Notes under the pieces: model-generated
What the model was told of the DNA's origin: nothing
The model's database searches: none
The model's input: the letters and a program-made list of their open reading frames with translations, nothing else
Source: Actinomycetota bacterium
Lineage (GTDB): Bacteria > Actinomycetota > Acidimicrobiia > Acidimicrobiales > Ilumatobacteraceae
DNA: 64,000 nt
Direction of reading: 5' to 3'
Assembly (NCBI GenBank): GCA_039800005.1
Contig: JBDLRN010000064.1
Location: 5,540 to 69,539 of the forward strand
Position numbers and translations under genes: made by a program
In this document: piece by piece, positions 47,056 to 64,000 of the stretch
Layout of the letters: every line of letters begins with the position of its first letter
How positions within the stretch are numbered: the first letter of the stretch is position 1

Positions 47056-47079
47056 GGTGTGTCCCGACGGGCACACACC
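47056..47079 (+). terminator. Hairpin after nuoN (terminator-like, no T-tract)
   Basis: GGTGTGT-CCCGACGGGC-ACACACC, 26 nt after the nuoN stop. Confidence 0.3.
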
Positions 47080-47098
47080 TGCGTGACAGACTGGCGTC

Positions 47099-47869: not shown

Positions 47870-47870
47870 T

Positions 47871-48566
47871 TCAGCGCGCGACGCGGATCAACCTGTCGAA
47901 CAGTCGTTGCTGTTCGGGGTCGACATCGGCCGAGTCCTCGGGATGCCACTGCACACCGACGACCCAGGTCTTGCGGGTGGCTTCGACGGCTTCGATCGTT
48001 CCGTCGTCGTGACGGCCGACCACGTGCAGATCGTCGGCGACGCGATCGAGGCATTGATGATGGTACGAATGGCAGCGAGCCGGACGTGCGGTCGCCATGG
48101 CCTCGGCGACCCGAGAGCCGCCCTCGAGTTCGACCGGATGGAACTCCTTGGTGTGCCCCGGTGCGGTGATGTGCTGCACGAGGGTTCCACCGAGCGACAC
48201 GTTCAGGATCTGGATGCCGCGACAGATGGCCAGGATCGGCTTGTCGGCCCGCCAGAAGGCGTCGACGACCGCGAGCTCGACGGCGTCGTGCCGATCGTTG
48301 ACGCCGTACAGCTGTGGTGCGTTCGTCTCCTGCCCGTAGCGAGCCGGATTCACGTCACCGCCGCCGTGCAACACGAGCGCGTCGCACGCGGCGACGAGTC
48401 GGTCGATCGACGCACGGTCGAAGTCGAGTGGGGGAACGATGACCGGAGTACCACCGGCGCGGGCGACGGCTTCGGAGTAGCGCCGTCCGGCTCCGAAGGC
48501 CTCGCCGCGCACCCCCGGTCCTTCGGGCATCTCCCGTCCGACGATCGACACGAGTGGTGACGTCAT
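47871..48566 (-). CDS. Gamma-glutamyl-GABA hydrolase-like class I glutamine amidotransferase (peptidase C26)
   Basis: ORF trimmed to ATG 48566 (MTSPLVSIVG). AICRGIQILN nucleophile motif. VQWHPE. Confidence 0.75.
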   Translation of the reverse strand: MTSPLVSIVGREMPEGPGVRGEAFGAGRRYSEAVARAGGTPVIVPPLDFDRASIDRLVAACDALVLHGGGDVNPARYGQETNAPQLYGVNDRHDAVELAVVDAFWRADKPILAICRGIQILNVSLGGTLVQHITAPGHTKEFHPVELEGGSRVAEAMATARPARCHSYHHQCLDRVADDLHVVGRHDDGTIEAVEATRKTWVVGVQWHPEDSADVDPEQQRLFDRLIRVAR

Positions 48567-48607
48567 CGGATCATTGTGCCAGGTGGGCGACACGGCATGA
48601 TGTCTCC

Positions 48608-49681
48608 ATGAGTTCACTCTTCGACACCGTGTCGTTCGCCCACGGACCGTCCATGCCCAATCGCTTCATGCTTGCGCCGCTCACCAACATGCAGAGTCAC
48701 GCCGACGGAACGTTGTCCGACGACGAGAAGAATTGGCTCGTGAAGCGGGCCGAGGGCGGATTCGGTCTGGTGATGACCTGTGCCGCTCACGTGCAGAAGC
48801 GCGGACAGGGATTCCCCGGACAACTCGGCACGTTCGCCGACGATCACGTGCCGGGTCTCGCCGGTCTGGCGAGTGCCATCAAGAGTCACGGCAGTGTGGC
48901 CGTGGTGCAGTTGCATCACGCCGGGCATCGTTCGCCCAAGGACCTGATCGGTGAAGCGCCGGTCTGTCCGTCGGACGATCCGGAGACCGGAGCGCGTGCG
49001 CTTTCCACTGAGGAGACCGAGCAGTTGATCGCCGATTTCGTGGCCGCCGCGGTGCGCTGCGATCGAGCCGGTTTCGACGGTGTCGAACTGCACGGCGCCC
49101 ACGACTACATGATCTGCGAGTACCTCAACCCGGAACTCAACCGACGTACCGATCACTACGGTGGGTCGTTGGAGAACCGATCGCGACTGTTGATGGAGAT
49201 CGTGGCCGGGATCCGCCGCGACTGTCGCTCCGACTTCAATCTGTCCGTTCGACTGTCACCCGAGCGATTCGGTATGCGCACCCCGGAGATCCGTGAAGTG
49301 TTCGGCTCGTTGGTCGACGCGGGAGTCGATTTCGTCGACATGTCGTTGTGGGACGTGTTCAAGGAACCGGCCGATCCCGACTTCGCCGGTCGACGGCTGA
49401 TCGACGTCTTCGCCGAATTGCCGCGGGGGCGAACTCGTCTCGCGGTGGCCGGCAAGTTGTACTCAGCGGCCGATGCGCAACGCGCCATCGACGCCGGAGC
49501 CGACATCGCGGTACTCGGACGCGCAGCGATCCTGCACCACGACTTCCCCCGACTCGCGAAGGACGACGCCCAGTTCGTGATGCGCGATCTCCCGGTCTCT
49601 CCCGAGACGCTGAAGAGCGAAGGGTTGTCCGACTCGTTCGTCGGCTACATGCGCAACTGGCCGGGTTTCGTCACCGAGTGA
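48608..49681 (+). CDS. NADH:flavin oxidoreductase (Old Yellow Enzyme family)
   Basis: ATG 48608. NRFMLAPLTN, VQLHHAGH, GVELHGAHDYMI, RLSPERF. Confidence 0.75.
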   Translation: MSSLFDTVSFAHGPSMPNRFMLAPLTNMQSHADGTLSDDEKNWLVKRAEGGFGLVMTCAAHVQKRGQGFPGQLGTFADDHVPGLAGLASAIKSHGSVAVVQLHHAGHRSPKDLIGEAPVCPSDDPETGARALSTEETEQLIADFVAAAVRCDRAGFDGVELHGAHDYMICEYLNPELNRRTDHYGGSLENRSRLLMEIVAGIRRDCRSDFNLSVRLSPERFGMRTPEIREVFGSLVDAGVDFVDMSLWDVFKEPADPDFAGRRLIDVFAELPRGRTRLAVAGKLYSAADAQRAIDAGADIAVLGRAAILHHDFPRLAKDDAQFVMRDLPVSPETLKSEGLSDSFVGYMRNWPGFVTE

Positions 49682-49700
49682 CGATCGTGACGGTCGCGGC

Positions 49701-50909
49701 TCAGTCGCGTAGGTCGTAACCGGCCGCGCGAACAGCGTCGACGATGCGTTCGGCGTGTTCGGGTCCGCGCACCTCGAGAACGGCGTTCACACCTGTTTCA
49801 CGCACGTGCAGGTCGACCCCCTCGCGCACGTGCTCGATGTCGATCACACTCGCGCCGTTGTCGGCGAAGACCGTGAGCAGTTTGGCGAGTCCACCAGGGC
49901 GGTCGCTCACCCGCACGAAGAGGATGAGTCGACGCCCGGCTTGGGTCTCGTGACGTCGGATGAGGCCGGGCACCACGCCGAGATCGACGTTGCCTCCCGA
50001 CAGCACGACGCAGGTGGTGCCATGACGCGCCGGTGCGACGCGTTCCGACAGAAGTGCGGCCACACCGACCGCACCAGCGCCTTCCACGTACAACTTGGCG
50101 CGCTCCATGAGATACACCATCGAATCGGCGACCGCGTCTTCGTCGACCACCACCACGTCGTCGATCCAGTTCTCGACGAGCGGCTCGGTGTACTGGCCCG
50201 GACGCTTCACCGCGATCCCGTCGGCGAGAGTGACGACCGGACCCGACGGCACGACGCCGTTGGCGTACGGCGCGCACGCCTCCACTTGGACGCCGATCAC
50301 CTTGATCGAAGGGTCGTGCATCTTCACGGCGATCGCCACACCGGTCGCCAGTCCACCACCGCCGAGGGGAACGATCACTCGACGCAAATCCGACACGTCG
50401 TCGATCAATTCGAGTCCGAGCGTGGCCTGTCCGGCGATTACGATCGGATCGTCGTACGGATGGCAGAACGTCATTCCGGTTTCGCTCGAGTGCTGGCGCG
50501 CGAAGCCGACGGCGTCGTCGAGTGAATCGCCACCTTCGATGACGTTGGCGCCGAATTCGCGACACGCCGCGATCTTGGCGATCGGGGCATTGGTCGGCAC
50601 GAAGATGTCGCACGGTGCGCCGAACTCGCGGGCGGCGAAGGCGAGTGACTGTGCGTGATTTCCCGCACTACCGGCCGTGACCCCGCAGCGCGCCGCATCG
50701 CCGAGCGAGGCCAGTTTGTTCATCGCGCCGCGAATCTTGAAACTCCCGGTGCGTTGCAGGTTTTCGGCTTTCAGCACCACCTGGCCGCCCGTGCGCTGCG
50801 ACAGCGTGTACGACCCGGTGATCGGCGTGTGTTGGACGACCCCGACGCCGGCGGCCCGGGCCGCGTCGATCTGCGCCCGGGTGATCTCCGGGACCCCGCT
50901 CTTCCCCAT
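49701..50909 (-). CDS. ilvA: Threonine ammonia-lyase (short form with ACT-like domain)
   Basis: GSFKIRGA PLP-lysine motif, SAGNHAQ, LGGGGL. C-terminal regulatory domain. Confidence 0.8.
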   Translation of the reverse strand: MGKSGVPEITRAQIDAARAAGVGVVQHTPITGSYTLSQRTGGQVVLKAENLQRTGSFKIRGAMNKLASLGDAARCGVTAGSAGNHAQSLAFAAREFGAPCDIFVPTNAPIAKIAACREFGANVIEGGDSLDDAVGFARQHSSETGMTFCHPYDDPIVIAGQATLGLELIDDVSDLRRVIVPLGGGGLATGVAIAVKMHDPSIKVIGVQVEACAPYANGVVPSGPVVTLADGIAVKRPGQYTEPLVENWIDDVVVVDEDAVADSMVYLMERAKLYVEGAGAVGVAALLSERVAPARHGTTCVVLSGGNVDLGVVPGLIRRHETQAGRRLILFVRVSDRPGGLAKLLTVFADNGASVIDIEHVREGVDLHVRETGVNAVLEVRGPEHAERIVDAVRAAGYDLRD

Positions 50910-50929
50910 GCGCGGTCTACCGTACCGGT

Positions 50930-51628
50930 GTGCGCGCCCTCGTGATCGCCAACGCCGACGACGCCGATCCCGGGATCGTGGGGGAGCGGTTCCGCCACCA
51001 CGGGGTGGCCTTCGCCGACGGATTCCGGGAGCACCCCGGCGACTGGCCCGATCTGGCCGGCCGAGACCTGGTCCTCCTGCTCGGGTCGGAGTGGAGCGTC
51101 TATTGGGACCAGGTGGCCGACTCGGTCCGAGCCGAATGTGCGCTCGTGAACGAGGCCGTTCGGCGGGGGACCCCGGTCTTCGCCATCTGTTTCGGGGCCC
51201 AGATCACCGCGAAAGCCCTGGGTGGGACGGTCGAGCGGGCTCGGCGCCCCGAGGTCGGCTGGCACCGCGTCGACAGCGATCGGCCCGATCTGATCGAGTC
51301 CGGCCCCTGGTTGCAGTGGCATTTCGACACCTTCACCGTCCCAGCCGGGCTCACCGAGATCGCCCGCAGCCCGTCGGGACCCCAGGCCATGGTGGGTCCA
51401 CGGCTGCTGGCCACCCAGTTCCATCCGGAAGCGACCGAGACCATGTTGTCGCAGTGGACCTCGGGTGACCCCGACGACCTCATCCGGTTGGGCCTCGACC
51501 CCGACCAGATCATGGCCGACACCCGACGCGAGGTCGTGGCCAGCCGCCCGCGGGCCGAAGCTCTGGTCGACTGGTTCGTCGAACAGCACCTGGGACGAGT
51601 CGGGGTCCGGGTCGCGACGAGCGAATAG
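50930..51628 (+). CDS. Type 1 glutamine amidotransferase-domain protein
   Basis: VFAICFGAQ nucleophile elbow. TQFHPE. Confidence 0.7.
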   Translation: MRALVIANADDADPGIVGERFRHHGVAFADGFREHPGDWPDLAGRDLVLLLGSEWSVYWDQVADSVRAECALVNEAVRRGTPVFAICFGAQITAKALGGTVERARRPEVGWHRVDSDRPDLIESGPWLQWHFDTFTVPAGLTEIARSPSGPQAMVGPRLLATQFHPEATETMLSQWTSGDPDDLIRLGLDPDQIMADTRREVVASRPRAEALVDWFVEQHLGRVGVRVATSE

Positions 51629-51674
51629 AGGTCACACGCTGGGCCGAAGTTGGGTCGTGGTTCGACCCTCGTAG

Positions 51675-51680
51675 TAGCGT
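51675..51680 (+). promoter_or_regulatory. Candidate -10 box (TAGCGT) 9 nt upstream of the second nuoA
   Basis: TTGGGT (51650-55), 19 nt, TAGCGT, CTCACGACG, ATG(51690). Confidence 0.35.
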
Positions 51681-51689
51681 CTCACGACG

Positions 51690-52055
51690 ATGTCGGACTT
51701 TCTGAGGTCGTACCTCACCGTCTTCTGGTTCGGGCTGGCGGCCCTCCTTTTGGCCTCCCTCTTGTTGGGGATCTCCGCCCTCATCCGCCCGGTACGTCCC
51801 ACCCGGGAGAAGTTGCTCACCTACGAGAGCGGTGTCGATCCGGTCGGTGACGGCTGGACGCAGAGCCAGATTCGTTATTACGTCTTCGCCCTGTTGTTCG
51901 TCGTGTTCGACGTGGAAGCCGTCTTCATCTTCCCGTGGGCCACTCAACTCGAGCGCTATGGCACCTTCGGCCTGGTCGAAATGGGTGTCTTCGTCGGAGT
52001 TCTCTTGCTCGGTCTCGTCTACGCCTGGCGCAAGGGCGTCCTTCGCTGGGTGTAA
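51690..52055 (+). CDS. nuoA: NADH-quinone oxidoreductase subunit A (second cluster)
   Basis: YESGVDP...FDVEAVFIFPWA. Confidence 0.88.
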   Translation: MSDFLRSYLTVFWFGLAALLLASLLLGISALIRPVRPTREKLLTYESGVDPVGDGWTQSQIRYYVFALLFVVFDVEAVFIFPWATQLERYGTFGLVEMGVFVGVLLLGLVYAWRKGVLRWV

Positions 52056-52070
52056 TCACAAAGGAGTCAC

Positions 52071-52625
52071 ATGGGTCTCGTCGACCGCGGGCGGCTCCCC
52101 AAGCCGCTGAATTCACTGCTCAACCTCGGACGCTCCTACTCGATGTGGGTGTATCAGTGGGGACTCGCGTGTTGCGCCATCGAGATGGGCGCGGCGTTCG
52201 GCTCACCGCGTTACGACGTGATGCGTCTCGGTGTGATCCCGTTGCCCGCCAGCCCTCGTCAGGCCGACCTGGTCGTGATCTCGGGAACCGTGACCGACAA
52301 GATGGCACCGGCCATCAAGCGTCTCTACGAGCAGATGCCCGATCCGAAATACGTGATCTCGATGGGTTCGTGCGCCAACTGCGGCGGCCCGTACTGGGAC
52401 AGCTACTCGGTCACCAAGGGAGTCGATCAGTTGATCCCGGTCGACGTGTACATCCCGGGTTGTCCGCCGCGGCCCGAAGCACTCCTCGAAGGTGTGGTTC
52501 TTCTGCAGCAGCGCATTCGCAACGAGGACATGGGTGCCCGTTGGCGTGGCGAGGGCTCCAAGCCCATCGTCGTCGAGGACCGTGGACGTCGCAGCCTGAA
52601 GGCGGGTGAGCCGAGTGTCGTCTGA
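52071..52625 (+). CDS. nuoB: NADH-quinone oxidoreductase subunit B (second cluster)
   Basis: [26 protein letters not shown]. Confidence 0.92.
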
Positions 52626-53268
52626 CGCCCCGGTCGCCGAGATTCCCGGCGACACACTTCGCGAACGCATCGTCGACGACCTGCGCTCGCACATCGGCGA
52701 CGCCCTCGTCGACAGCCTGGTGAAGCCGGGTGACGACGTGTGGGTGCGCGTTCGCCCCGACGCCTGGCTCGACACCGCGCGGACTCTTCGTCAGCAGATG
52801 GGCTTCGATTACTTCTGCTTCCTCTCGGCCATCGACTGGATGCCGTCGCCGTACGGCAAGGGTGAAGACGACCCCACCGCCCCGCCGCCCGAGCGCGACG
52901 ACACCATCCGCCAGGGTTACGCCGGTGGTGACACTCGGTTCCAGATGCTGGCTCGAGTCACGCATCCGACACTCCATGTGGGCGTCAACGTGAAGTGTGA
53001 CCTCGACGACGCTCAGCCGGTCGTCGATTCGTGGATCCCCGTGTACGCCGGCGCCAATTGGCACGAGCGCGAGACACACGAGATGTTCGGCATCGGATTC
53101 AACGGCCACCCCGATCTGCGCAACATGTACCTGCCCACCGACTTCGAGGGTCATCCGCTTCGCAAGGACTTCCCGCTGCTCGCGCGCATGGTCAAACCGT
53201 GGCCGGGCATCGTCGACGTGGAACCCCTCCCCGGTGGCGGCGACGACGAGGAAGGTGACGGAGAATGA
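52606..53268 (+). CDS. nuoC: NADH-quinone oxidoreductase subunit C (second cluster)
   Basis: [40 protein letters not shown]. Start at GTG 52606 or 52615. Confidence 0.88.
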
Positions 53269-54446
53269 CCTCGACCGAATCGCTGATCGACCGTCGTCAG
53301 ATGGCGTACATCGCGGCCCAGGCCTCCGATGCCCGTCTCAACGTCGAACTCGAGACCGAGGGCATGACCCTCAACATCGGACCGCAGCACCCGGCCACGC
53401 ACGGGACCCTGCGCATCATCGCCCGTCTCGACGGCGAACAGGTGGTGTGGGCCGAGCCGTCGTGCGGCTACATGCACCGCGGATACGAGAAGCTCACCGA
53501 AGTGCGCACCTATCCGCAGGTGACCACTCTCGTCAACCGCATCGACTGGCTCGGATCGTTCGCCAACGAGGTGCCGTTCATCCTGGCGGCCGAGAAGTTG
53601 ATGGGTATCGAGGCACCGCCGCGTGCCCAGTGGATCCGCACGATCCTCTTCGAGTTGTCGCGCATCGCCAACGTGTCGTTGTTCCTCGGCGACCTCGGTG
53701 TGCAGATGGGTGCCATCACACCGGTGTTCATGGCGTTCCGCGACCGCGAATACGTGCTCAACCTCATCGAAGGAGCCACGGGTGGTCGCTTCCATCCCAA
53801 CTTCGACCGTATCGGCGGCTTGAAGGACGATCTGCCGGCCGGATTCGTCGACGAGACCCGCGCCGTGATGAAGAAGTTGCGCAACTTCTGCGACGAGATC
53901 GAAAACCTGCTGTTCGGCAACGAGATCTTCCAGAGTCGTATGCGTGGCATCGGTGTGATCCCGAAGGACGTCGCTCTGCAGTACGGCCTGTCGGGCGCCA
54001 ACCTGCGCGCGAGCGGTGTCGACTGGGACCTGCGCCGTGATCAGTCGCTTCCCATGGCCTGGAACAAGGTCGACTGGAAGGTCTGGACCCATCCCGACGG
54101 CGACTCGTTCGCTCGTTGCTGGGTGCGTCTCCAGGAGACGCGGGAAGCGACGCTCATCGTCGACCAGCTGCTCGACTCGATTCCGTCCGGCCCGGTCATG
54201 GCCAAGGTGCCGCGCATCATCAAGGTGCCCGAAGGTGAGGCGTGGGTCTCGACCGAGAACCCGCTCGGCGAGATGGGCTACTACGTCGTGAGCAAGGGCG
54301 ACCTCGGACCGTTCCGCACCAAGATCCGCTCGGCGAGCTTCAACAACATCTCGATCGTGCCGTGGGTGCTGAAGGGTGTCTACGTCCCCGACATCATCAC
54401 GATCCTGGCGTCGCTGTACTTCATCCTCGGAGACATCGATCGCTGA
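53265..54446 (+). CDS. nuoD: NADH-quinone oxidoreductase subunit D (second cluster)
   Basis: [16 protein letters not shown]-terminal [13 protein letters not shown] overlap with nuoC. Confidence 0.92.
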
Positions 54447-55507
54447 TGAACGCCGCCTCGCTCCTCGCCGTCGACCTGCCGTACTGGGCGCAGTCGCTCC
54501 TGCGCGTCCTCGGTGGAATCGTCGCCGTGCTCCTGCCGGCCGGCACGATCGTCTACGTCTTCCTCTTCAAGATGATGTCGTTCATGCAGAGCCGACTCGG
54601 ACCCATGGAAGCCGGACCCTTCGGTTCTCTCCAGTTGGTGGCCGAAGTCGGCAAGTGGCTGCAGAAGGAGGACATCACTCCGGAGCGGGCCGATCGGTTC
54701 ATCTTCAAGGCCGCGCCGTTGGTGGTGCTGGTCTCGACGTTCTTGTTGGTGGCAGTCGTGCCGTTCGGTCCCGATGCGTGGTTCACCGACTTCGAAGCCG
54801 GTGTCTTCTACATGCTCGCGGTGGGTTCGGTGAGCGTGCTCGGCATCATCATGGCGGGCTGGGCCAGTGCCAACAAGTACTCGCTCCTCGGCGGTTTGCG
54901 AGCCGCCGGTCAGCTCATCGCCTACGAGTTGCCGATGGTGCTCGCCGTGGTCGGTGTGATCATCCAGGCCGGCAGCATGAACCTCCAGCAGATCGTGTTC
55001 GCGCAGAACGCCGGCTCGATGTTCGGCTGGGACGGTCTGGGCAATCCGTATCTGCTCACTCAGTTCGTGGGCTTCCTCGTCTTCATGATCGCCGTCCAGG
55101 CCGAACTCACCCAGGCGCCGTTCGACATGCCGATCGCCGAATCCGAACTCGTGTCGGGTTACATGACCGAGTACTCGGGATTCCGCTTCCTGACCTTCTT
55201 CATCGCCGAGTTCGCCACCGCAGGCGTGTTCTCGCTCATCGCCTCGGTGCTGTTCCTCGGTGGCTGGGGCATTCCGTTCGCCTGGTTCGGTTGGGAGACG
55301 CTGAACGACGTCGACGACTGGATGAACGTCGTCGGCCCGCTGATCATGGTCGCCAAGATGATGCTGCTCGCCTTCATCATCATGTGGGTCCGTTTCAGTT
55401 ATCCGCGTTTCCGCGAGGACCAGTTGCAGAAGTTCGCGTGGAAGGTGCTCGTTCCCGTGTCGTTGATCAACATCATGTTCACCGCGATTCTGAAGGTGGC
55501 GTTCTGA
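54446..55507 (+). CDS. nuoH: NADH-quinone oxidoreductase subunit H (second cluster; follows nuoD directly)
   Basis: ATG 54446 overlaps the nuoD stop (TGATG). [32 protein letters not shown]. Confidence 0.9.
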
Positions 55508-55998
55508 TGCCCAAGGTCCCCGGTCTCATCAAAGGTCTCGGTGTCACCCTCAACACGCTCGTCCGTACGACGACGCAGGGTGCCAACACCGTGCAGTACC
55601 CGCACGAGAAGGAAGCACCGCCGCTGCGCGCGCGCGGTGTCATCGCCCTGCGCGAAGACAATTGCACGTCGTGCATGTTGTGCGCGCGCTCGTGTCCCGA
55701 CTGGTGCATCTACATCGAGGGTCACAAGGAACTCGCTCCGCCGCGCCGCGCTGGTGGCAAGCCCCGTCAGGTGAACAAGCTCGACCGCTTCGACATCGAC
55801 TACGCGCTGTGCATGTACTGCGGCATCTGCGTGGAAGTGTGCCCCTTCGACGCTCTCTTCTGGAGCCCCGAGTACGAGTACAGCGAACCGCACATCGCCG
55901 ATCTGCTCCACGACAAGAACAAATTGGGCGAGTGGATGGAAACCGTGCCCGAGGCTCCGGCTCTCGAGGCCGGCGCCGAGAAGAAGGGCAAGAAGTGA
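55507..55998 (+). CDS. nuoI: NADH-quinone oxidoreductase subunit I (second cluster)
   Basis: [12 protein letters not shown] and [12 protein letters not shown]. Confidence 0.9.
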
Positions 55999-56516
55999 TG
56001 GTCGCCGCCGACGTCCTCGTGGCCCAGAACGTCGGGTTCGGGATCATCTCGTTGTTGATGATCGTCGGCGCCCTACGAGTCGTCACCGTGAAGAACGTCG
56101 TTCATGCCGCTCTCTGGCTGGTCATCGTCCTCTCGGGTGCCGCCGCCCAGTACCTGCTGCTGTCGGCCGAATTCGTGGCGGTGACCCAGGTGCTCGTCTA
56201 CGTGGGAGCGGTGATGGTGCTGTTCCTGTTCGGCACCATGCTCACCCGCGCCAAGATCGGTGCCGAGGCCGACCTGAACAACAAGAACTGGGGTATCGCC
56301 GTTCCGGTGTCGCTGGTCATGCTCGGCGTGATCTCGTGGGTACTGATCGACGGTTTCGGTGACGACCGGCTTCCGAACCCTGACGAAGCCGGCCAGGTGC
56401 CCGTTCAGGTGTTGAGTGACGACATCTTCGGCCCGTACCTCCTGCCCTTCTGGGCCCTGTCGTTCGTCCTGCTCGCCGCCGTCATCGGTGCCATCGTTCT
56501 GGCCAGGAAGGACTGA
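55998..56516 (+). CDS. nuoJ: NADH-quinone oxidoreductase subunit J (second cluster)
   Basis: ATG 55998 (TGATG). AEFVAVTQVLVYVGAVMVLFLF. Confidence 0.85.
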   Translation: MVAADVLVAQNVGFGIISLLMIVGALRVVTVKNVVHAALWLVIVLSGAAAQYLLLSAEFVAVTQVLVYVGAVMVLFLFGTMLTRAKIGAEADLNNKNWGIAVPVSLVMLGVISWVLIDGFGDDRLPNPDEAGQVPVQVLSDDIFGPYLLPFWALSFVLLAAVIGAIVLARKD

Positions 56517-56521
56517 GAGCC

Positions 56522-56821
56522 ATGCTGACCGTCCAGTTCCTCCTGTTGGCCGCGATCCTGTTCTCGATCGGCGTGTACGGCGTACTCGCTCGCAAGAACG
56601 CGGTCATGGTCCTCATGTCGATCGAGTTGATCCTGAACGCGGTCAACTTGAACCTCATCGCCTTCGCCTATCGACTCCAGTCGATCGACGGCAACACCTT
56701 CGCCTTGTACGTGATCGCCATCGCAGCGGCCGAAGTGGGCGTGGGTCTGGCCCTCGTGCTCCTGATCTACCGCAACCGGCGCTCCATCGCGCTCGACGAA
56801 CTGTCCGAGATGAAGGGCTGA
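56522..56821 (+). CDS. nuoK: NADH-quinone oxidoreductase subunit K (second cluster)
   Basis: SIELILNAVNL...AAAEVGVGLAL. Confidence 0.9.
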   Translation: MLTVQFLLLAAILFSIGVYGVLARKNAVMVLMSIELILNAVNLNLIAFAYRLQSIDGNTFALYVIAIAAAEVGVGLALVLLIYRNRRSIALDELSEMKG

Positions 56822-56824
56822 TCG

Positions 56825-59236
56825 ATGATCGCTGCCGAAGCCTCCCACGTCATGTCCCATTCCGCCGGCTGGTTCCTCGAGCACGCCTGGATCATCCCGA
56901 TCGTTCCGGCGGTCGCGTTCGTGCTCATCATCTTCTTCGGCAAGCGTCTGCCGATGAAGGGCAGCGAACTGGGCGTCGCGTCGATGATCGGTTCGCTCGT
57001 GCTCGCGCTCGGCGCGGCATATCAGTGGATCCAGCGCGTCGACGACGCGTCCGGCCACAGTGCCGCGTCGTTGATGAAGGCCGGTGGCGAATCGTCGCCG
57101 TTCGTGGGTCCGGTCATCCGTGAATGGACCTGGTGGCAGAGCGGCGGCCTCGAGTTCGGAATCGGCCAGCACATCGACGGACTCGCGCTCACGCTCCTCG
57201 TGGTGGTCGCCTTCATCTCGACGCTGGTGCAGTTCTACTCGCTCGAGTACCTGCGCGGAGATCGTCGCTACACCCACTTCTTCGCCGCGCTCACGCTGTT
57301 CTCGGCCGGCATGTTGAGCATGGTGCTCGCACCCAACATGGTGCAGCTCATCCTCGGCTGGGAGATCATGGGCCTCTGCTCGTTCATGTTGATCGGGCAC
57401 TGGTGGGAGGACCAGGCCAACGCCCGCGCCGCCCTGAAAGCCTTCTTCACCGTGCGCGTCGGCGACGTCGGCTTGCTGGTGGGTACCGGGGTCCTCTTCT
57501 TCTCGGCCAATGCCTGGACGCAGCAGAACCTGGGCGTCAGCGGTTTCAACATCTCGGGTCTGTCGGCCTGGGCCATGTCGGGTGCGGCGAGCCAGAGCGC
57601 GCTCACGTGGGGCGCGGTCGCCCTCTTCATCGCCTGCATCGGCAAGTCCGGCCAGTTCCCGCTGCACACCTGGTTGCCCGACGCCATGGCCGGACCCACG
57701 CCGGTCAGTTCGCTGCTCCACTCGAGCACCATGGTCGTGGCCGGCGTGTTCCTGGTCGCTCGCGTGTACCCGGTCTTCTGGGAAGGCCTCGAGATCACCG
57801 ACACTAACATCAACTTCATCGCCCTCATCGGCGGTGTCACCATCGTGATCGCCGCGCTGCTGGCGTTCGTGCAGCACGACATCAAGAAGGTGCTGGCGTA
57901 CTCAACGGTGTCGCAGCTCGGCTACATGATGCTCGGCCTCGGTGCCGGCGCCTGGTTGCCGGCTGTGTTCCACATCTTCACGCACGCCTTCTTCAAGGCG
58001 TGTCTGTTCCTCGCCGCCGGCTCGGTGAGCCATTCGGGTTCGCATCACTCCTTCGACATGAAGAAGGACATGGGCGGTTTGGCCAAGAAGATGCCCATCA
58101 CGGCGACCACGTGGATCATTTCCACGCTCGCCCTGGCGGGCGTGTTCCCGCTGGCCGGTTTCTTCTCCAAGGACGAGATCATCGACAACGTCGGCCACAA
58201 CGGCTACCAGGTCTTCATGATCGTCGGTCTGTGCGGGGCCTTCCTCACCGCCGCCTACATGACCCGCGCGACGTACCTCACCTTCTTCGGTGAAGCACGC
58301 GGTGCGGCGGCCGGTGAACATCACGACGACCATGCCGATGCACATGCCGATCACGGTCACGCCGACGATCACGGACACGATGCTCACGCGGCGCACGGAG
58401 CGCACGACGATCACGGACACGATGGTCATGATGCTCACGGCCCGCACGAGAGCCCCAAGCTCATCACCGTGCCGCTGGTGATCCTGGCCGCGCTCGCCCT
58501 CACCGCCGGTCTGGCCAACGCCACGCCGTTCGGATCGAGTTGGGAACGTTTCAAGAAGTACGTCGAACCGAGTCCGGCCTTCGTGGTCGCCGAGTCCACC
58601 ATGGCCACCGGTCCCGGTGAAGCGATCCGCATCGTCGAGGCCACCACGGCCACCGAAGGTGGCGGGGAAGAGGCCAAGGCCGGTTGCTCGTACGAGAACC
58701 CGCCTGCGGGCGAGGTCTGCTACTTCCCGGCCGTCAGCCATGCCAAGTTCAAGTGGAGCAAGGGTCTCTTGTCGCTCGCGATCGTGGCCGCCGGCCTGGT
58801 GTCGAGTTGGGTCTTCAGCGTTCAGTACTACACGCGTCGTAACCGTCGACTCGTGGGGCTCACCGAACGCAGCCGCGTGTTGCGCGGTGGCTATCAGTTC
58901 CTCTGGAACAAGTACTACCTCGACGTTCTCTACGAGAAGTACATCGTGCGCGCCGTCGCCTATCCGATCGCCAAGGCCACCAACTGGTTCAACCAGAACG
59001 CCATCGACGGAGTGGTCAACGGTTCCGGTCGCATCTCCCGCCGCATCGCAGGCTGGGTGTATCGCAACATCGATCAACGCGTCGTCGACGGCGCGGTGAA
59101 CACCTCGGGCGCCGCGGCCCGAGGCACGGGTGGGGCCCTGCGTCCCATCCAGTCCGGCAAGGTCAATCAGTACGGAGCGCTGCTGTTCGCTGCGGCCGCC
59201 ATCGGCGCTCTCGTACTCGTCATCATCAACACCTGA
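56825..59236 (+). CDS. nuoL: NADH-quinone oxidoreductase subunit L (second cluster; enlarged, 803 aa, His/Asp-rich insert)
   Basis: ILGWEIMGLCSF, WLPDAMAGPTPVSSLLHSSTMV. Insert GEHHDDHADAHADHGHADDHGHDAHAAHGAHDDHGHDGHDAHGPHE. Confidence 0.9.
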   Translation: MIAAEASHVMSHSAGWFLEHAWIIPIVPAVAFVLIIFFGKRLPMKGSELGVASMIGSLVLALGAAYQWIQRVDDASGHSAASLMKAGGESSPFVGPVIREWTWWQSGGLEFGIGQHIDGLALTLLVVVAFISTLVQFYSLEYLRGDRRYTHFFAALTLFSAGMLSMVLAPNMVQLILGWEIMGLCSFMLIGHWWEDQANARAALKAFFTVRVGDVGLLVGTGVLFFSANAWTQQNLGVSGFNISGLSAWAMSGAASQSALTWGAVALFIACIGKSGQFPLHTWLPDAMAGPTPVSSLLHSSTMVVAGVFLVARVYPVFWEGLEITDTNINFIALIGGVTIVIAALLAFVQHDIKKVLAYSTVSQLGYMMLGLGAGAWLPAVFHIFTHAFFKACLFLAAGSVSHSGSHHSFDMKKDMGGLAKKMPITATTWIISTLALAGVFPLAGFFSKDEIIDNVGHNGYQVFMIVGLCGAFLTAAYMTRATYLTFFGEARGAAAGEHHDDHADAHADHGHADDHGHDAHAAHGAHDDHGHDGHDAHGPHESPKLITVPLVILAALALTAGLANATPFGSSWERFKKYVEPSPAFVVAESTMATGPGEAIRIVEATTATEGGGEEAKAGCSYENPPAGEVCYFPAVSHAKFKWSKGLLSLAIVAAGLVSSWVFSVQYYTRRNRRLVGLTERSRVLRGGYQFLWNKYYLDVLYEKYIVRAVAYPIAKATNWFNQNAIDGVVNGSGRISRRIAGWVYRNIDQRVVDGAVNTSGAAARGTGGALRPIQSGKVNQYGALLFAAAAIGALVLVIINT

Positions 59237-59247
59237 GGAGACACGGC

Positions 59248-60849
59248 ATGGAAGTACTCCGTGACCAAAACTGGCTACTGACCGTCGGCACATTCTTGCC
59301 GCTGGTCGGCGTGCTGGTGATGCTGTTCATTCCCAAGGCCGACGAAGAGCTCCACAAGTTGGTCGCTCTCGTCACCGCTGCGGCCACGCTGGGAGTCGGC
59401 ATCTACACCCTCACCCAGTTCGACTTCGACCAGTCCGAGAAGCTGCAGTTCTTCGCCGACACCGAGTGGATCAAGGTCATCTCGAGCAATTACACGATCG
59501 GTCTCGACGGCATGAGCCTGCCGCTCTACGTCCTGTCGATGATCGTCACCTTCCTGGTGATGATCTACTCCTGGAACCACATCCCGTCGCCGGGCAACCC
59601 GAAGGCCTTCCTCAGCCTCATGTTGATCCTGCAAACGGGTATGGCCGGAACCTTCGTCGCGCAGGACCTCATCCTCTTCTTCGTGTTCTTCGAAGTGGTG
59701 CTCCTGCCGATGTACTTCATGATCGGCGTGTGGGGTGGCGAACAGCGTCAGTACGCGTCGCTCAAGTTCTTTCTCTACACGATGTTCGGATCGGCCCTCA
59801 TGTTGGTCGCTTTCATCGCTCTCTTCTTCAAGGTACGCGGCGCGCTGCCCGAAGGTGTCGAGCCGTCGTTCTCGATTCCGATGCTCACCGAATACGGCGG
59901 ATTGCTCGGCCGTTCGGCGCAGGTCTGGATCTTCGCCGGCATGTTCATCGGATTCGCCGTCAAAGTTCCGATGTTCCCGTTCCACACGTGGTTGCCCGAT
60001 GCTCACACGCAGGCGCCCACGCAGGGTTCGGTCATCCTGGCCGCCATCCTCCTGAAGCTCGGAACCTACGGCTTCGTGCGTATCGCCATTCCGATCCTTC
60101 CCGAAGCGGCCAAGGAATGGGCGCCCTGGATCGGCTTGTTGGCCGTGATCGGCATCATCTACGGCGCCTTCGGCTGTCTCGCCCAGACCGACATGAAGCG
60201 GCTCATCGCCTTCTCGTCGGTGGCGCACATGGGTTTCGTGATGCTCGGCATCTCGACCCTCACGCCGATGGGTTTCAACGCCGCCCTGTTCGGCATGGTC
60301 GCCCATGGTCTCATCACCGGCATGTTGTTCTTCGTGGCGGGAAGTGTGAAGGAGCGCTACCACACGCTCGAGATCGCGCGCCTCGGCGGCATGCTGAAGC
60401 AGATGCCGAAGTTGGGATGGATCCTCGGTTTCAGCGCCATGGCGTCGCTCGGCCTGCCGGGCCTGGCCGGTTTCTGGGGCGAGTTCCCGGCCATCCTCGC
60501 CGCCTACTCGCCGGCCGATGGTCTCCCGGTCGAGACCTTCCGCACCTACATGATCATCGCCGCCATCGGCACGGTGTTCGCCGCGGCCTATCTCTTGTGG
60601 ATGTTCCAGCGCACCGCGTTCGGTGAGCCCAAGCCCGAGTTCGCCGGTGGCGGTCACGGATCGCACGGCGATCATGGTCACGGCCACGATGATCACGGTC
60701 ACGACGACCTGCACGACGTGAACACCTACGAGTGGATCGCCTGGACCCCGTTCCTCATCGCCATCGTGGTGTTCGGTGTGTACCCGCAACTCATGTTCGA
60801 GATCTTCGACCCGGCGGTCGAAGTCGCGCTGTCGGCGTTCGGAGGCTGA
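59248..60849 (+). CDS. nuoM: NADH-quinone oxidoreductase subunit M (second cluster; His-rich loop)
   Basis: HTWLPDAHTQAPTQGSVILAAILLK. GGGHGSHGDHGHGHDDHGHDDLHD. Confidence 0.9.
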   Translation: MEVLRDQNWLLTVGTFLPLVGVLVMLFIPKADEELHKLVALVTAAATLGVGIYTLTQFDFDQSEKLQFFADTEWIKVISSNYTIGLDGMSLPLYVLSMIVTFLVMIYSWNHIPSPGNPKAFLSLMLILQTGMAGTFVAQDLILFFVFFEVVLLPMYFMIGVWGGEQRQYASLKFFLYTMFGSALMLVAFIALFFKVRGALPEGVEPSFSIPMLTEYGGLLGRSAQVWIFAGMFIGFAVKVPMFPFHTWLPDAHTQAPTQGSVILAAILLKLGTYGFVRIAIPILPEAAKEWAPWIGLLAVIGIIYGAFGCLAQTDMKRLIAFSSVAHMGFVMLGISTLTPMGFNAALFGMVAHGLITGMLFFVAGSVKERYHTLEIARLGGMLKQMPKLGWILGFSAMASLGLPGLAGFWGEFPAILAAYSPADGLPVETFRTYMIIAAIGTVFAAAYLLWMFQRTAFGEPKPEFAGGGHGSHGDHGHGHDDHGHDDLHDVNTYEWIAWTPFLIAIVVFGVYPQLMFEIFDPAVEVALSAFGG

Positions 60850-60852
60850 TCA

Positions 60853-62370
60853 GTGTTGTCGTCGATTCTCGCCCAGGTGCCGTGGCAGGCGCCGACGGTC
60901 GACTATCACGCGCTCGCGCCCGAGATCGTGCTGGCGGCCGGTATCTGCCTCGTCATCGTCGTCGACCTCGTGGTCGGTGAGACGAAGAAGTGGATCGCTG
61001 CGTCCCTGACCGGCTTCGTACTGCTCGGCGCGCTGTTGCCGGTCGTCACGCTCGCCGTTCACGACTCCGACGTTCGTTCGCTGTTCGACGGACGGTACGT
61101 GATCGACGAGTTCTCGCTCACTCTGAAAGCACTCTTCCTCATCGCCGGTTACGTGGTGGTCCTGCTCTCTCAGAATCACGTGGAAGAAGGCGACTATCAC
61201 CAGGGCGAGTACTACATCTTGTTGCTCACGTCGCTCACCGGTATGGCGATGATGGCGTCGAGCCGTGATCTCGTCAGCATCTTCGTCGCTCTCGAGTTCC
61301 TGAGCATTCCGGCCTACATGCTCGCCGCGTGGCGCAAGCGTGACCGCAAGAGCAACGAAGCCGGCGTGAAGTACTACCTGCTCGGCGTGTTCGCCTCGGC
61401 GGTCATGTTGTACGGCATGAGTCTTCTCTACGGCGTCACAGGTTCGACTCTCCTGACCGACATCGGCCGGAGCATCACGGTCGACGGCGACTTCGGCGGG
61501 GTTCACGTGCTGGCCGTGGTGTTCGTGATCGTCGGCTTCGCCTTCAAGGTGTCGGCGGTTCCGTTCCACACCTGGGCTCCCGACACGTACGAAGGTGCGC
61601 CCACGCCCATCACCGCCTTCTTGTCGGTGGCGAGCAAGGCGGCTGGTTTCATCGCTCTGGTGACCGTGATCTACGTCGGCTTCCCGCAGGCGTCCGATGT
61701 GTGGCAACCGTTCCTCTGGGTGATGGCCGCTCTCACCATGACGGTGGGCAACTTGGTCGCGCTGCGTCAGACCAACATCGTGCGCATGCTCGCCTACTCG
61801 TCGATCAGCCAGGGCGGCTTCATCCTCATGCCGCTCGCAGTGGCCGGGATCGGCGACGCCGCCGAACCGGCTCTGCAGGCCGTGGTCGTGTATCTGCTCG
61901 TGTACGCGGCGATGAATCTCGGCATGTTCGCGGTGGTCATCGCCGTGAGCCGCACCACGCGCAGTGGTGAGATCTCGAGTCTCGGTGGACTCTTCTCGTA
62001 CGCGCCCGGACTCGGCGTGTTGATGACATTGTTCCTCGCGTCGTTGGCCGGCATCCCGCCTCTCGGCGGTTGGATCGCCAAGTTCGCCGCTTTCCGTGCC
62101 GTACTCGAGGCCGGCAACGGTTGGGCCTACGCCATCGCCGTGATCGGTGCCGTCAACTCGGTCGTCGCCTTCGGCTACTACGGCAACGTCATGCGCGAGA
62201 TCTGGATGCGTCCCACGCCTCACGGTGAGACGACTGCCGTGCGCACGCCGGGTTCCCTCGTGGCGGCCCTCACCATCACTGGTGCGGCCACCGTCGTGCT
62301 CGGTGTGCTGCCGGGATCGGTGTTGCGCTTCGGCGATCTGTCCGATCTGGTCGGCGCCTTCGGCGGCTGA
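60853..62370 (+). CDS. nuoN: NADH-quinone oxidoreductase subunit N (second cluster)
   Basis: FKVSAVPFHTWAPDTYEGAPTP. GTG 60853. Confidence 0.9.
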   Translation: MLSSILAQVPWQAPTVDYHALAPEIVLAAGICLVIVVDLVVGETKKWIAASLTGFVLLGALLPVVTLAVHDSDVRSLFDGRYVIDEFSLTLKALFLIAGYVVVLLSQNHVEEGDYHQGEYYILLLTSLTGMAMMASSRDLVSIFVALEFLSIPAYMLAAWRKRDRKSNEAGVKYYLLGVFASAVMLYGMSLLYGVTGSTLLTDIGRSITVDGDFGGVHVLAVVFVIVGFAFKVSAVPFHTWAPDTYEGAPTPITAFLSVASKAAGFIALVTVIYVGFPQASDVWQPFLWVMAALTMTVGNLVALRQTNIVRMLAYSSISQGGFILMPLAVAGIGDAAEPALQAVVVYLLVYAAMNLGMFAVVIAVSRTTRSGEISSLGGLFSYAPGLGVLMTLFLASLAGIPPLGGWIAKFAAFRAVLEAGNGWAYAIAVIGAVNSVVAFGYYGNVMREIWMRPTPHGETTAVRTPGSLVAALTITGAATVVLGVLPGSVLRFGDLSDLVGAFGG

Positions 62371-62380
62371 TCCGGCGTTC

Positions 62381-63391
62381 ATGGCCGACGAACCGGCCCT
62401 CGTCCGCTTCGACGAGTTCCTCGACGACGCGCTCTACGGGCCGAGCGGCTTCTACACCACCGGTGGCCGAGCCGGTCGGCGGGGCGACTTCATCACGTCA
62501 CCCGAAGTGGGCCCGTTGTTCGGAGCGGTGCTCGCGCGTTGGTGCGACGCCATGTGGCGTGAACTCGGCGAACCGTCGGACTTCTGCGTGTACGACCTGG
62601 GTGCGGGTCCGGGGACCCTGGCCCGCTCGATCCTCGCCTCCGCGCCAGAGTGTCTGGGTGGTGACGCGTCGCGTTACGTGGCGGTGGAGGTGTCGGCCGA
62701 ACAGCGGGCCCGTCACCCCGAGGGCATCACCTCGGTGAGTGAGATCGGGGGCCGAGGCGACGGGTCACGGCTCACGGGAGTGGTGATCGCCAACGAACTG
62801 CTCGACAACGTGCCGTTCCGCATGCTGGTGTTCGATGGTGGATGGCGCGAATCGTGGGTGCTGCGCGACGGCGAGAACGCGAGTGAAGTGTTGCGCGACG
62901 TCGACGGTGAGATCCCGGTGCGCCTGCCCGATCGAGCGCCGCACGGTGCCCGGGTGCCGTGGCACGAACGCGGAGTGCAGATGTTGCGCGACGTGTCGGA
63001 TCGACTCGACGGACATCTGTTGGTGATCGACTACATGGTGCCGGTCACGGCGTCGTTGGCGCAGCGACCGTGGCGCGAATGGTTGCGTACGTATCGCGGC
63101 CAGGAGCGCGGCGCGCACTACCTGCGCGACGTCGGGAAGCAGGACGTCACCACCGAGGTGTGCGTCGATCAACTCGAGGCCGGACTCGGTGCGGCGCGAG
63201 CCGTGCGGTCCCAGGCCCAGTTCCTCCAGCTGTGGGGGATCGAGGAGTTGGTCGAGGAAGGCAAACGGGTGTGGGCCACCGAGGCGGCGCGCCCTGGACT
63301 GCGCGCGATGACGATGCGCAGTCGGGTGAGCGAAGCCGAAGCCCTTCTCGACCCGGCCTCTCTCGGCTCCTTTACTGCCCTCACATGGTGA
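62381..63391 (+). CDS. MidA/NDUFAF7-family (DUF185) SAM-dependent methyltransferase
   Basis: ATG 62381, 10 nt after the nuoN stop. FDEFLDDALYGPSGFYT...GDFITSPEVGPLFG...VYDLGAGPGTLA...ANELLDNVPF. The stop codon lies inside repeat copy C. Confidence 0.7.
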   Translation: MADEPALVRFDEFLDDALYGPSGFYTTGGRAGRRGDFITSPEVGPLFGAVLARWCDAMWRELGEPSDFCVYDLGAGPGTLARSILASAPECLGGDASRYVAVEVSAEQRARHPEGITSVSEIGGRGDGSRLTGVVIANELLDNVPFRMLVFDGGWRESWVLRDGENASEVLRDVDGEIPVRLPDRAPHGARVPWHERGVQMLRDVSDRLDGHLLVIDYMVPVTASLAQRPWREWLRTYRGQERGAHYLRDVGKQDVTTEVCVDQLEAGLGAARAVRSQAQFLQLWGIEELVEEGKRVWATEAARPGLRAMTMRSRVSEAEALLDPASLGSFTALTW

Positions 63392-63442
63392 TCTGGTGAG
63401 GAATTTTCACCGTATAGGTGAAGATCACGCACCAGATTCGGC
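63387..63442 (+). repeat. REP/MITE-like palindromic unit, copy C
   Basis: GGTGATCTGGTGAGGAATTTTCACCGTATAGGTGAAGATCACGCACCAGATTCGGC. Contains the stop codons of both convergent flanking genes. Confidence 0.85.
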
Positions 63443-64000
63443 CGGCTCGGGTCGGGATGTCATCACGGCTCCCACCACCACGACGGCCATGCCGAGCAAG
63501 GCCCACCACGAAATGTGTTCGTCGCGAAACGAGACACCGAGGATCACGCTCACGATGGGTGTGAAGAAGTTGCCGATCATGCTGCGAACCGGACCGGCAC
63601 GACCGAGCAGGACGCCGTACACCGCGAAGGCCACGCCGGTACCGACCGCCCCCAGCACGAAGATCGAACTCCAAGCGCTCAGTGTGTGCTCGCTGCGGAA
63701 CATCGCCGGCACTCCGAGCGGGAGGGCCCACAGCACGGCTGCGAACTCGGTCCAGAACATGAGGCGCAACGATCCGTACTTCTCGCGCAGTGGCGCGGCG
63801 ATGTTGACCGCCGAGGCGTAGCACATCAGCGAGATCAGCAGCAGTGACACCCCCTTGACGTCGGCTGTCGGACCGTCGTCCTCGGCGTTGATCGACGAGA
63901 ACGAGATGACGGCGATGCCGACGAAACCGACCACGACAGCGACCATGCGATGAATCGACGGAACTCGTCGGGCCCACATCGCTGTCACCACCACGCCGAC
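63425..64000 (-). CDS. DMT/EamA-family transporter (C-terminal part; 5' end beyond the window)
   Basis: Hydrophobic ORF 63425..63994, open to the window end. The C-terminal half resembles EamA (...GVAFAVYGVLLGRAGPVRSMIGNFFTPIVSVILGV). Confidence 0.6.
   Translation of the reverse strand, partial: VGVVVTAMWARRVPSIHRMVAVVVGFVGIAVISFSSINAEDDGPTADVKGVSLLLISLMCYASAVNIAAPLREKYGSLRLMFWTEFAAVLWALPLGVPAMFRSEHTLSAWSSIFVLGAVGTGVAFAVYGVLLGRAGPVRSMIGNFFTPIVSVILGVSFRDEHISWWALLGMAVVVVGAVMTSRPEPAESGA

Follow-up and report, generated by a model that had tools for sequence, protein, structure and literature searches.

A second, NuoEFG-less complex I operon of the Acidimicrobiales: conservation, a variant NuoD pocket, a linked MidA-type methyltransferase gene and candidate electron donors

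From where would a complex I-like enzyme draw its electrons when its own operon encodes no NADH-oxidizing module? This question is raised by a 64,000-nucleotide stretch (hereafter the window, meaning the whole stretch analysed) of contig JBDLRN010000064.1, from an actinobacterium of the Ilumatobacteraceae (assembly GCA_039800005.1), in which a canonical 14-gene nuoA-N cluster (nuo1, positions 31922-47030, plus strand) is followed by a second nuo cluster, nuo2, without nuoE, nuoF and nuoG. We favour the view that positions 51690-63391 form one operon conserved in the Acidimicrobiales, which would encode a proton-pumping, NuoEFG-less complex I fed by ferredoxin, together with a MidA-type methyltransferase that would methylate Arg72 of its NuoD subunit. 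The chances that this composite reading is right appear to us evenly balanced, its parts being of unequal firmness, and we therefore treat them one after the other.

nuo2 is intact, under purifying selection and of old, separate descent

The nuo2 cluster is made of eleven open reading frames (ORFs) on the plus strand, at positions 51690-62370, which follow one another in the order nuoABCDHIJKLMN and contain no internal stops or frameshifts. Window proteins were assigned to families with the NCBIfam and Pfam profile models and their cut-offs. The product of nuoA2 (51690-52055, 121 amino acids) matched the NCBIfam NuoA models with 132.9 bits at best; that of nuoB2 (52071-52625, 184 amino acids), the carrier of cluster N2, scored 219 bits with NF005012 (cut-off 116). 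nuoC2 (52606-53268, 220 amino acids from a GTG start) belongs to PF00329 and scored 100.8 bits with TIGR01961, its start being placed at 52615 (217 amino acids) by the gene callers on identical metagenome contigs, and nuoD2 (53265-54446, 393 amino acids) scored 386.9 bits with NF004739 (cut-off 360). Next come nuoH2 (54446-55507, 353 amino acids; NF004741, 302.5 bits), nuoI2 for the 2x[4Fe-4S] subunit (55507-55998, 163 amino acids; NuoI models), nuoJ2 (55998-56516, 172 amino acids; NuoJ models, 106 bits) and nuoK2 (56522-56821, 99 amino acids; NF004320, 115 bits with a cut-off of 57). The cluster ends with the antiporter-like nuoL2 (56825-59236, 803 amino acids; TIGR01974, 509.9 bits with a cut-off of 407.5), nuoM2 (59248-60849, 533 amino acids; TIGR01972, 562 bits) and nuoN2 (60853-62370, 505 amino acids; Pfam Proton_antipo_M, PF00361).

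The same gene set was called independently on two metagenome contigs whose encoded proteins are identical. TGATG overlaps were found at the D2/H2, H2/I2 and I2/J2 junctions and, because stop and start overlap in the first of them, there is no space for nuoEFG between nuoD2 and nuoH2. No NuoE, NuoF or NuoG of its own, the subunits with the flavin mononucleotide and NADH site, was present in nuo2, which is thus not a canonical 14-subunit set. As for nuo1, Pfam models identified NuoE (PF01257), NuoF (PF01512, PF10589) and NuoG (PF00384, PF22117, PF10588), and comparison of paralogues showed that it holds a counterpart of each of the eleven nuo2 genes, with a protein identity of 28-47% between the clusters. 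A preliminary description made from the letters of the window had proposed just this, an 11-gene nuoABCD-HIJKLMN cluster with no room for nuoE/F/G beside a first cluster with all 14 genes; the ORFs, family models and external gene calls, the nuoD2/nuoH2 overlap and the content of nuo1 confirmed these three points. A scan of positions 46800-64000 for promoters and terminators gave site numbers no higher than in shuffled sequences.

We then looked at how widely the cluster is kept. A scan of one genome per species for relatives of NuoD2 gave at least 595 stretches, the best 80 of which were analysed; all of these 80 come from Acidimicrobiales (Ilumatobacteraceae, Microthrixaceae, Aquihabitans and sponge-associated genera), with a NuoD2 identity of 77-91%. 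Matches to NuoD2 above 90% identity were proteins of metagenome-assembled genomes labelled Acidimicrobiales or Ilumatobacteraceae, and the DNA runs with the nuoD2 gene were freshwater, estuary and lagoon metagenomes. For the comparison of loci we used 78 further loci and two contigs identical to the window, reading the order as far as the contigs reach. The order A2-B2-C2-D2-H2-I2-J2-K2-L2-M2-N2 was kept in 78 of the 78 further loci, so that an unbroken row of these eleven genes, with no E, F or G among them, characterizes the window and all these related loci alike. At most 205 nucleotides separated the aligned end of D2 from the aligned start of H2 in every one of them, and no NuoE, F or G match lay within any of their nuo2 clusters.

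The ratio of nonsynonymous to synonymous substitution (dN/dS), calculated pairwise according to Nei-Gojobori on 45-80 orthologues per gene and with synonymous sites near saturation, had medians from 0.11 (B2) to 0.41 (L2) over all eleven genes. Cofactor ligands and proton-pump residues were invariant across 55-80 species, with NuoM2 Glu412 as the sole exception (55 of 56). They comprise Asp74 and Glu76 of NuoA2 (VFDVEAV motif, 73 orthologues); the N2 ligands Cys34, Cys35, Cys101 and Cys131 of NuoB2 (74-77 orthologues), where the PGCPPRPE motif is present; nine Cys of NuoI2 (73 orthologues), eight of them in two CxxCxxCxxxCP motifs; the loop Glu residues of NuoH2; and Glu35 and Glu71 of NuoK2. 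In the antiporter-like subunits, where the set covers the Glu of transmembrane helix (TM) 5, the Lys of TM7, the Lys/His of TM8 and the Lys/Glu of TM12, they are Glu180, Lys274, His299, Lys449 and Asp450 of NuoL2 (65 orthologues), Glu149, Lys239 and Lys270 of NuoM2 (58 orthologues) and Glu148, Lys232, Lys262 and Lys410 of NuoN2 (55 orthologues). The preliminary description had credited NuoB2 with its N2 ligands and NuoI2 with both 4Fe-4S motifs and had held that the cluster was not a pseudogene set; both statements stand, the former on cysteines that are invariant among orthologues, the latter on intact ORFs, the dN/dS values and the invariant catalytic residues.

Some features of individual subunits were also observed. 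An extra cysteine of NuoB2, Cys104 (SCANCGG, window 52371-52382), stands three residues past Cys101, one of the N2 ligands; all 77 Acidimicrobiales orthologues have it, but neither NuoB1 (VCASSGG) nor the 'Candidatus (Ca.) Actinomarinales' type discussed below (SCSNSGG) does. NuoL2, which varies most among the subunits (43-75% identity between loci), has 803 amino acids versus 637 in NuoL1: a His/Asp-rich loop, HHDDHADAHADHGHADDHGHDAHAAHGAHDDHGHDGHDAHGPHE, follows transmembrane helix 14, and an insert of about 100 amino acids with two Cys (CSYENPPAGEVC) and an extra hydrophobic stretch lies ahead of the lateral helix. The NuoM2 loop GHGSHGDHGHGHDDHGHDD (60646-60717) resembles the His/Asp-rich loop of NuoL2.

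With regard to expression, no RNA runs of the same organism were found for a 6-kb stretch. A single-gene query led to metatranscriptomes that contained only 5-7% of its words, whose contigs were aligned at 85% likeness. In four freshwater or riverine metatranscriptomes, with contigs of 85-95% DNA identity, there were 123-186 nuo2 contigs and 150-221 nuo1 contigs per run; since the two clusters have so little protein identity (28-47%), the former must stem from nuo2 orthologues of relatives. nuo2 is thus covered about as densely as nuo1, which is weak evidence of expression.

The descent of nuo2 was studied with a quick maximum-likelihood tree (IQ-TREE) of 97 NuoD sequences. The Acidimicrobiia NuoD2 sequences and their sister group (P0128, P0161, P0174, P0217, P0218, P0234 and P0266) formed a clade with a Shimodaira-Hasegawa-like approximate likelihood-ratio (SH-aLRT) support of 99, the nearest outgroup of NuoD2 being the Actinomarinales-type protein P0122, and NuoD1 was placed apart from this clade, amid typical 14-subunit sequences. 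When distant relatives of NuoD2 were sought among 1.8 billion cluster representatives, the nearest full-length ones outside its own group were P0122 (57% identity) and P0128 (49%), the rest having 43% or less. The contig of P0122 carries an ABC transporter, a heliorhodopsin and an 11-gene nuo cluster, an arrangement already known in print from loci of 'Ca. Actinomarinales'. That nuo2 arose from cluster 1 by recent duplication was ruled out by the identity of 28-47% and the different NuoD clade. Taken together, these data show that nuo2 is intact, under purifying selection and of an old lineage separate from the co-resident 14-subunit enzyme.

The NuoD2 pocket and the downstream methyltransferase

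Looking at the quinone site of NuoD2, we derived residue equivalences from a HMMER alignment to Nqo4 of Thermus thermophilus and a MAFFT alignment of 19 sequences, and we use Thermus numbering for the positions. His38 is kept as His46 (79 of 79 sequences). Tyr87 is replaced by Trp95 (80 of 80), Thr135 by Asp143 (77 Asp and 3 Glu of 80), Asp139 by Gln147 (79 Gln and 1 His of 80), Phe146 by Val154 (73 Val, 4 Ala and 3 Ile of 80), Arg350 by Leu and Asp401 by Tyr385 (80 of 80). Of the canonical quinone-headgroup ligands, His38 is thus retained and Tyr87 replaced, and Asp139 is replaced as well; NuoD2 has a variant pocket, a feature absent from the preliminary description, and the family fold is not lost. 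NuoD1 is canonical at H38, Y87, T135, D139, R350 and D401, with Met at 146. In the remaining 83 sequences of the tree Tyr prevails at position 87, Trp being found in just three, unrelated ones.

Positions 87 and 401 fall in those two stretches of NuoD that correspond by homology to the Ni-Fe ligand motifs in hydrogenases, and they should for that reason be spatial neighbours. Asp143, at position 135, is one helix turn away from position 139. This arrangement suggests that the proton donors were relocated rather than lost, an acidic residue at 135 and a Tyr at 401 probably taking over; with 87 and 401 side by side, such relocated donors would imply a shifted quinone pose. The Tyr87-to-Trp substitution itself has a precedent in NuoD of piericidin-producing Streptomyces, where it was tied to resistance to inhibitors (piericidin, rotenone) (Degli Esposti 2015, PMC4758237). 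That case, however, is rare and strain-specific, concerns a 14-subunit enzyme and was read as self-resistance, whereas in nuo2 the same substitution is fixed clade-wide in NuoEFG-less enzymes and accompanied by three further pocket changes.

We also noted that the looked-up members of the NuoD2 sister group (L084-L088, from other actinobacteria) are stand-alone NuoD-like genes with no adjoining nuo gene. Their products have Trp at the Tyr87 position and a C-terminal GDIDK or GDVDK, and the genes adjoin those for bPH_2 membrane proteins, OpuAC, UbiA and others. A linkage of these genes to PF02636 was seen in one of six contexts only (L085, two genes away), and we make no claim of it.

Ten nucleotides past nuoN2 starts a gene (62381-63391, plus strand, 336 amino acids) for a MidA/NDUFAF7-type S-adenosylmethionine (SAM)-dependent methyltransferase, assigned to PF02636 with an E value of 4.7e-26 and 92 bits (cut-off 23.3); it is probably the last gene of the nuo2 operon. 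Its solved relatives are 4f3n (COG1565/DUF185), 5ztz (a Dictyostelium NDUFAF7 homologue) and 1zkd, and the glycines of the class I SAM-binding motif DLGAGPG are invariant in 46 orthologues. Of the 55 loci with enough sequence past nuoN2, 46 have the gene there, and in the nine others no MidA-like gene was found within 1.7-2.2 kb downstream of nuoN2. These nine (L038, L045, L050, L051, L053, L056, L064, L068 and L071), several of which are from sponge-associated or soil lineages, have unrelated downstream genes that differ at each locus.

In mitochondria, the NDUFAF7 family dimethylates Arg85 of NDUFS2, the homologue of NuoD, this Arg being part of the motif LHRGxEK. NuoD2 reads GYMHRGYEK, with Arg72 in 80 of 80 orthologues, versus GYLHTGMEK in NuoD1, with Thr at the Arg72 position as in Thermus. 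Judged by the HRG motif, Arg72 would occupy the position of bovine Arg85, and the methyltransferase is probably an assembly or maturation factor specific to Nuo2, not a donor module. It shares with mitochondrial NDUFAF7/MidA the PF02636 family and a homologous Arg in the HRG motif of its putative target, but it is bacterial, operon-encoded and tied to a paralogue without the NADH-oxidizing (N) module. The preliminary description had seen no candidate donor gene adjacent to nuo2 apart from the methyltransferase; indeed no donor gene is adjacent, but as a PF02636 assembly factor the methyltransferase is no donor candidate either.

A bolder proposal, possible but doubtful in our judgement, is that the actinobacterial NuoEFG-less Nuo2 enzymes might form a distinct functional class of the complex I superfamily, in which the Tyr would have moved from 87 to 401 and the Asp from 139 to 135, Trp would fill the old Tyr site and the N2-proximal Arg would be modified by the MidA of the operon. 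On this view the stand-alone NuoD-like genes of the sister group would hint at a further role of this NuoD type, beyond complex I. If this were true, the rebuilt pocket and the modified Arg would bring about a different quinone pose, potential and proton chemistry, and Nuo2 might resist piericidin/rotenone-type inhibitors or suit the ferredoxin-to-menaquinone span.

Candidate electron donors

How could such an enzyme work? In the mechanism that we favour, NuoB2, C2, D2 and I2 would constitute a quinone-reducing (Q) module and NuoA2, H2, J2, K2, L2, M2 and N2 a proton-pumping (P) module. The entry point for electrons would be the pair of [4Fe-4S] clusters in NuoI2, left exposed by the lack of a covering NuoG. 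As donor we expect a soluble carrier of low potential, reduced ferredoxin being the likeliest, for which 2-oxoacid:ferredoxin oxidoreductases, frequent in this class, would be a plausible source. From N2 in NuoB2 electrons would pass to menaquinone in the pocket with W95, D143, Q147 and Y385, driving proton export through H2, L2, M2 and N2, and the methyltransferase would dimethylate Arg72 of NuoD2, beside N2, during assembly.

None of the nuo2 subunits has an extra cofactor domain, and the extensions of NuoB2 and NuoC2 contain no cysteine motifs. Clustering of flanking ORFs at 80 loci, noisy with shadow ORFs in this high-GC DNA, gave the methyltransferase as the only neighbour family of nuo2 that recurs across families; otherwise, cluster 1 genes recurred, as did the lineage-specific neighbours PALP, GATase, C26 peptidase and MetH. 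With no extra cofactor domain and no conserved donor gene nearby, the donor must be unlinked and must dock from solution on the exposed NuoI2 side. We rank the candidates, the most likely first, as ferredoxin or another small low-potential carrier, NuoEFG of cluster 1 acting in trans, F420H2 (reduced coenzyme F420) and reverse operation.

Comparison with solved structures points in the direction of ferredoxin. NuoH2 was matched best by chloroplast and cyanobacterial NdhA (218-228 bits), ahead of Thermus and Mycobacterium (181-183), and for NuoD2 cyanobacterial NdhH (301 bits) came second, between Thermus Nqo4 (338) and Mycobacterium NuoD (229); NdhA and NdhH are subunits of the ferredoxin-dependent NDH-1. 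To our knowledge, all NuoEFG-less relatives with a known donor use ferredoxin. The preliminary description's rule of non-NADH donors for 11-subunit complexes is a generalization, sharing of the cluster 1 NuoEFG being conceivable here. In addition, a sister order of the same class has a tricarboxylic acid cycle with 2-oxoglutarate:ferredoxin oxidoreductase instead of the dehydrogenase (PMC12008989), and ferredoxin is the favoured donor of the Desulfitobacterium 11-subunit enzyme (PMC11238625).

Several points weigh against the ferredoxin-fed, MidA-modified enzyme. We found no ferredoxin, flavodoxin or oxidoreductase partner linked to the operon. Cyanobacterial NDH-1 needs NdhS, NdhV and NdhO for ferredoxin binding, and none of the three was seen in the nuo2 operon. 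We infer Arg72 methylation from linkage and homology only, and what RNA evidence there is stems from contigs of relatives, with DNA carry-over a possibility. Finally, mutation of Tyr87 to Trp severely impairs the reduction of decylubiquinone in Yarrowia and in E. coli (cited in PMC4758237); because normal quinone reduction is abolished in those mutants, quinone reduction by nuo2 is not assured.

Among the alternatives, the one that survives best, though we think it unlikely, is that Nuo2 borrows NuoEFG from cluster 1 and would be a second NADH:menaquinone isozyme with a different pocket, for example one that is inhibitor-resistant or tuned to another quinone or potential. The link of the Tyr87-to-Trp change to piericidin and rotenone resistance (PMC4758237) fits this idea, as does the similar RNA coverage of both clusters in relatives, and NuoEFG sharing in trans has been envisaged (Spero et al., PMC4453560). 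The position of the clusters can be read both ways: nuoN1 was found 92-7557 nucleotides upstream of nuoA2 in about 30 loci, about 10 of these being directly in tandem, and the gap in the window is 4.7 kb, but there are also fetched loci that have no nuoN1 within about 8 kb upstream of nuoA2, so that tandem placement is not required. The subunits that would have to dock NuoG, NuoC2, D2 and I2, share no more than 30-38% identity with their paralogues in cluster 1, NuoD2 falls in a different deep clade, and related NuoEFG-less enzymes work in genomes without NuoEFG (PMC3144371).

Considerably less probable is an F420H2:menaquinone oxidoreductase of the Fpo/Fqo type with an unlinked FpoF/FqoF-type subunit. 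For 'Ca. Actinomarinales', Lopez-Perez et al. (2020, PMC7771536) proposed F420 as donor, on the grounds of an identity of up to 35% to Methanosarcina Fpo and of the wide occurrence of F420 among actinobacteria. However, 35% is no higher than the identity to any other complex I, and for C, D, H, I, J, K and L of nuo2 the Fpo models score below the Nuo models and far under the Fpo cut-offs. Moreover, no FrhB/FpoF-like gene was conserved by the cluster, in the window or at the 80 loci, the flanks not having been run against an FpoF/FrhB model.

Equally improbable, in our estimate, is that Nuo2 runs mainly in reverse, the proton-motive force driving menaquinol electrons onto ferredoxin or some other acceptor of low potential, or that its acceptor is other than ordinary menaquinone. 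The pocket would then be non-canonical because of the reverse flow or the other acceptor, in keeping with the change of the proton-donor pair Tyr87/Asp139 to Trp/Gln in 79-80 of 80 species and with the same pocket change across the wider clade. Yet His38 is retained, and the acidic residue at 135 and the Tyr at 401 look like a relocated functional quinone site; as to reverse flow, aerobic heterotrophs have no obvious need of it and there is no direct evidence for it. That nuo2 is a decaying or silent duplicate has a practically negligible chance, with no frameshift or stop, dN/dS of 0.11-0.41, the checked catalytic residues invariant or nearly so, NuoD2 at least 77% identical over the best 80 Acidimicrobiales species genomes, and nuo2 covered by RNA-library contigs of relatives.

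Known relatives, neighbourhood and significance

The co-occurrence of a 14-gene and a NuoEFG-less 11-gene nuo cluster in the same genome was described for 'Ca. Actinomarinales' (Acidimicrobiia) (Lopez-Perez et al. 2020, PMC7771536), and an operon nuoABCDHIJKLMN-NDUFAF7 with a 14-subunit cluster nearby was reported in a preprint (Bulzu et al. 2021, 10.1101/2021.02.01.429150). nuo2 is a further case of this published NuoEFG-less type, in a different order, and as such is ordinary for the class. The two loci have in common the identical 11-gene order followed by NDUFAF7 (PF02636), a 14-gene nuo cluster close by and the Trp at the Tyr87 position of NuoD. They differ in that the window comes from Acidimicrobiales (Ilumatobacteraceae-like), has a much longer NuoL2 and lacks the upstream heliorhodopsin and Fe-ABC transporter as well as the downstream htpX, pspE and adenosine kinase; in addition, the Actinomarinales NuoD has Glu139, Ala135 and Asp401 where NuoD2 has Gln, Asp and Tyr. 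In the literature searched we found no account of the order-wide conservation of nuo2, of the Arg/Thr contrast between NuoD2 and NuoD1, or of the fixed four-residue pocket change.

In a wider frame, 11-subunit complex I-like enzymes (NUO11) are widespread, including in actinobacteria, with no partner protein identified (Moparthi and Hagerhall 2011, PMC3144371). Like these and the enzyme of Desulfitobacterium hafniense (PMC11238625), nuo2 consists of the Q and P modules, without an N module and with no dedicated partner gene identified; what sets it apart is the 14-subunit enzyme next to it, in a respiratory island of aerobic type, the MidA homologue encoded in its operon and the absence of the canonical residues Tyr87 and Asp139. 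The NDH-1 of cyanobacteria and plastids likewise has no NuoEFG, ferredoxin being its donor at NdhI, but NdhH retains the Tyr and the Asp that are changed in NuoD2.

Membership of the known NuoEFG-less families was rejected on scores. For NDH-1, the scores and cut-offs were 334 and 583 (NdhH), 64.5 and 302 (ndhI), 465 and 963 (NdhF), 65 and 175 (NdhJ) and 85.5 and 145 (NdhC), and the nuo2 operon has no extra small-subunit genes for NdhL, M, N, O, S or V. For Fpo, they were 81 and 220 (FpoC), 322 and 600 (FpoD), 249 and 475 (FpoH), 44 and 180 (FpoI), 27 and 110 (FpoJ), 102 and 145 (FpoK) and 360 and 1050 (FpoL); the best Nuo models gave 396 bits for D2, 302.5 for H2, 530 for L2 and 93.8 for I2, each above the Fpo score. 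A group 4 [NiFe] hydrogenase (Ech, Mbh, FHL) was discarded as well, NuoD2 having no CxxC but NRIDW and SLYFILGD at the places of the two Ni-Fe ligand motifs of the large subunit; MbhL and HycE were the weakest solved matches of NuoD2.

Between the two clusters of the window lie genes for a Cas4-like nuclease, a C26 peptidase, an Old Yellow Enzyme homologue, a threonine dehydratase and a GATase, which vary between lineages and are unlikely to be electron donors. The Old Yellow Enzyme-type NADH:flavin oxidoreductase (PF00724, 48554-49681) was found, among the fetched loci, only on L002, the one identical contig that reaches so far, which makes a conserved partnership with nuo2 unlikely. The window as a whole is a respiratory island, in which nuo2 follows the genes at 22729-47030. 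These are a Rex-like repressor gene (22729-23412), a geranylgeranyl-reductase-like flavoprotein gene on the minus strand (24061-25326), a cytochrome b/Rieske-type operon that includes a 2x[4Fe-4S] protein (27160-27573) and nuo1. Despite the Rex gene, no site of the Rex operator TTGTGAA-N4-TTCACAA was detected in the whole window with up to 3 mismatches.

What does this locus mean for the enzyme family? The donor question for complex I without an N module dates from at least 2011, and the locus narrows the search without solving it. The order that carries nuo2 is abundant in freshwater, sea and soil, and the cluster is present in all 78 further loci. The adjoining normal complex I provides an internal control for nuo2, and at least one isolate with a complete genome carries the cluster (Aquihabitans sp., locus L058), so that biochemical and genetic work could be within reach. 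What most deserves experiment in nuo2 is its remodelled pocket and its link to MidA: the fixed Trp/Gln/Asp/Tyr pocket and the pairing of MidA with Arg72 offer hypotheses, testable by mutation, on quinone chemistry and on the bacterial role of a mitochondrial assembly factor.

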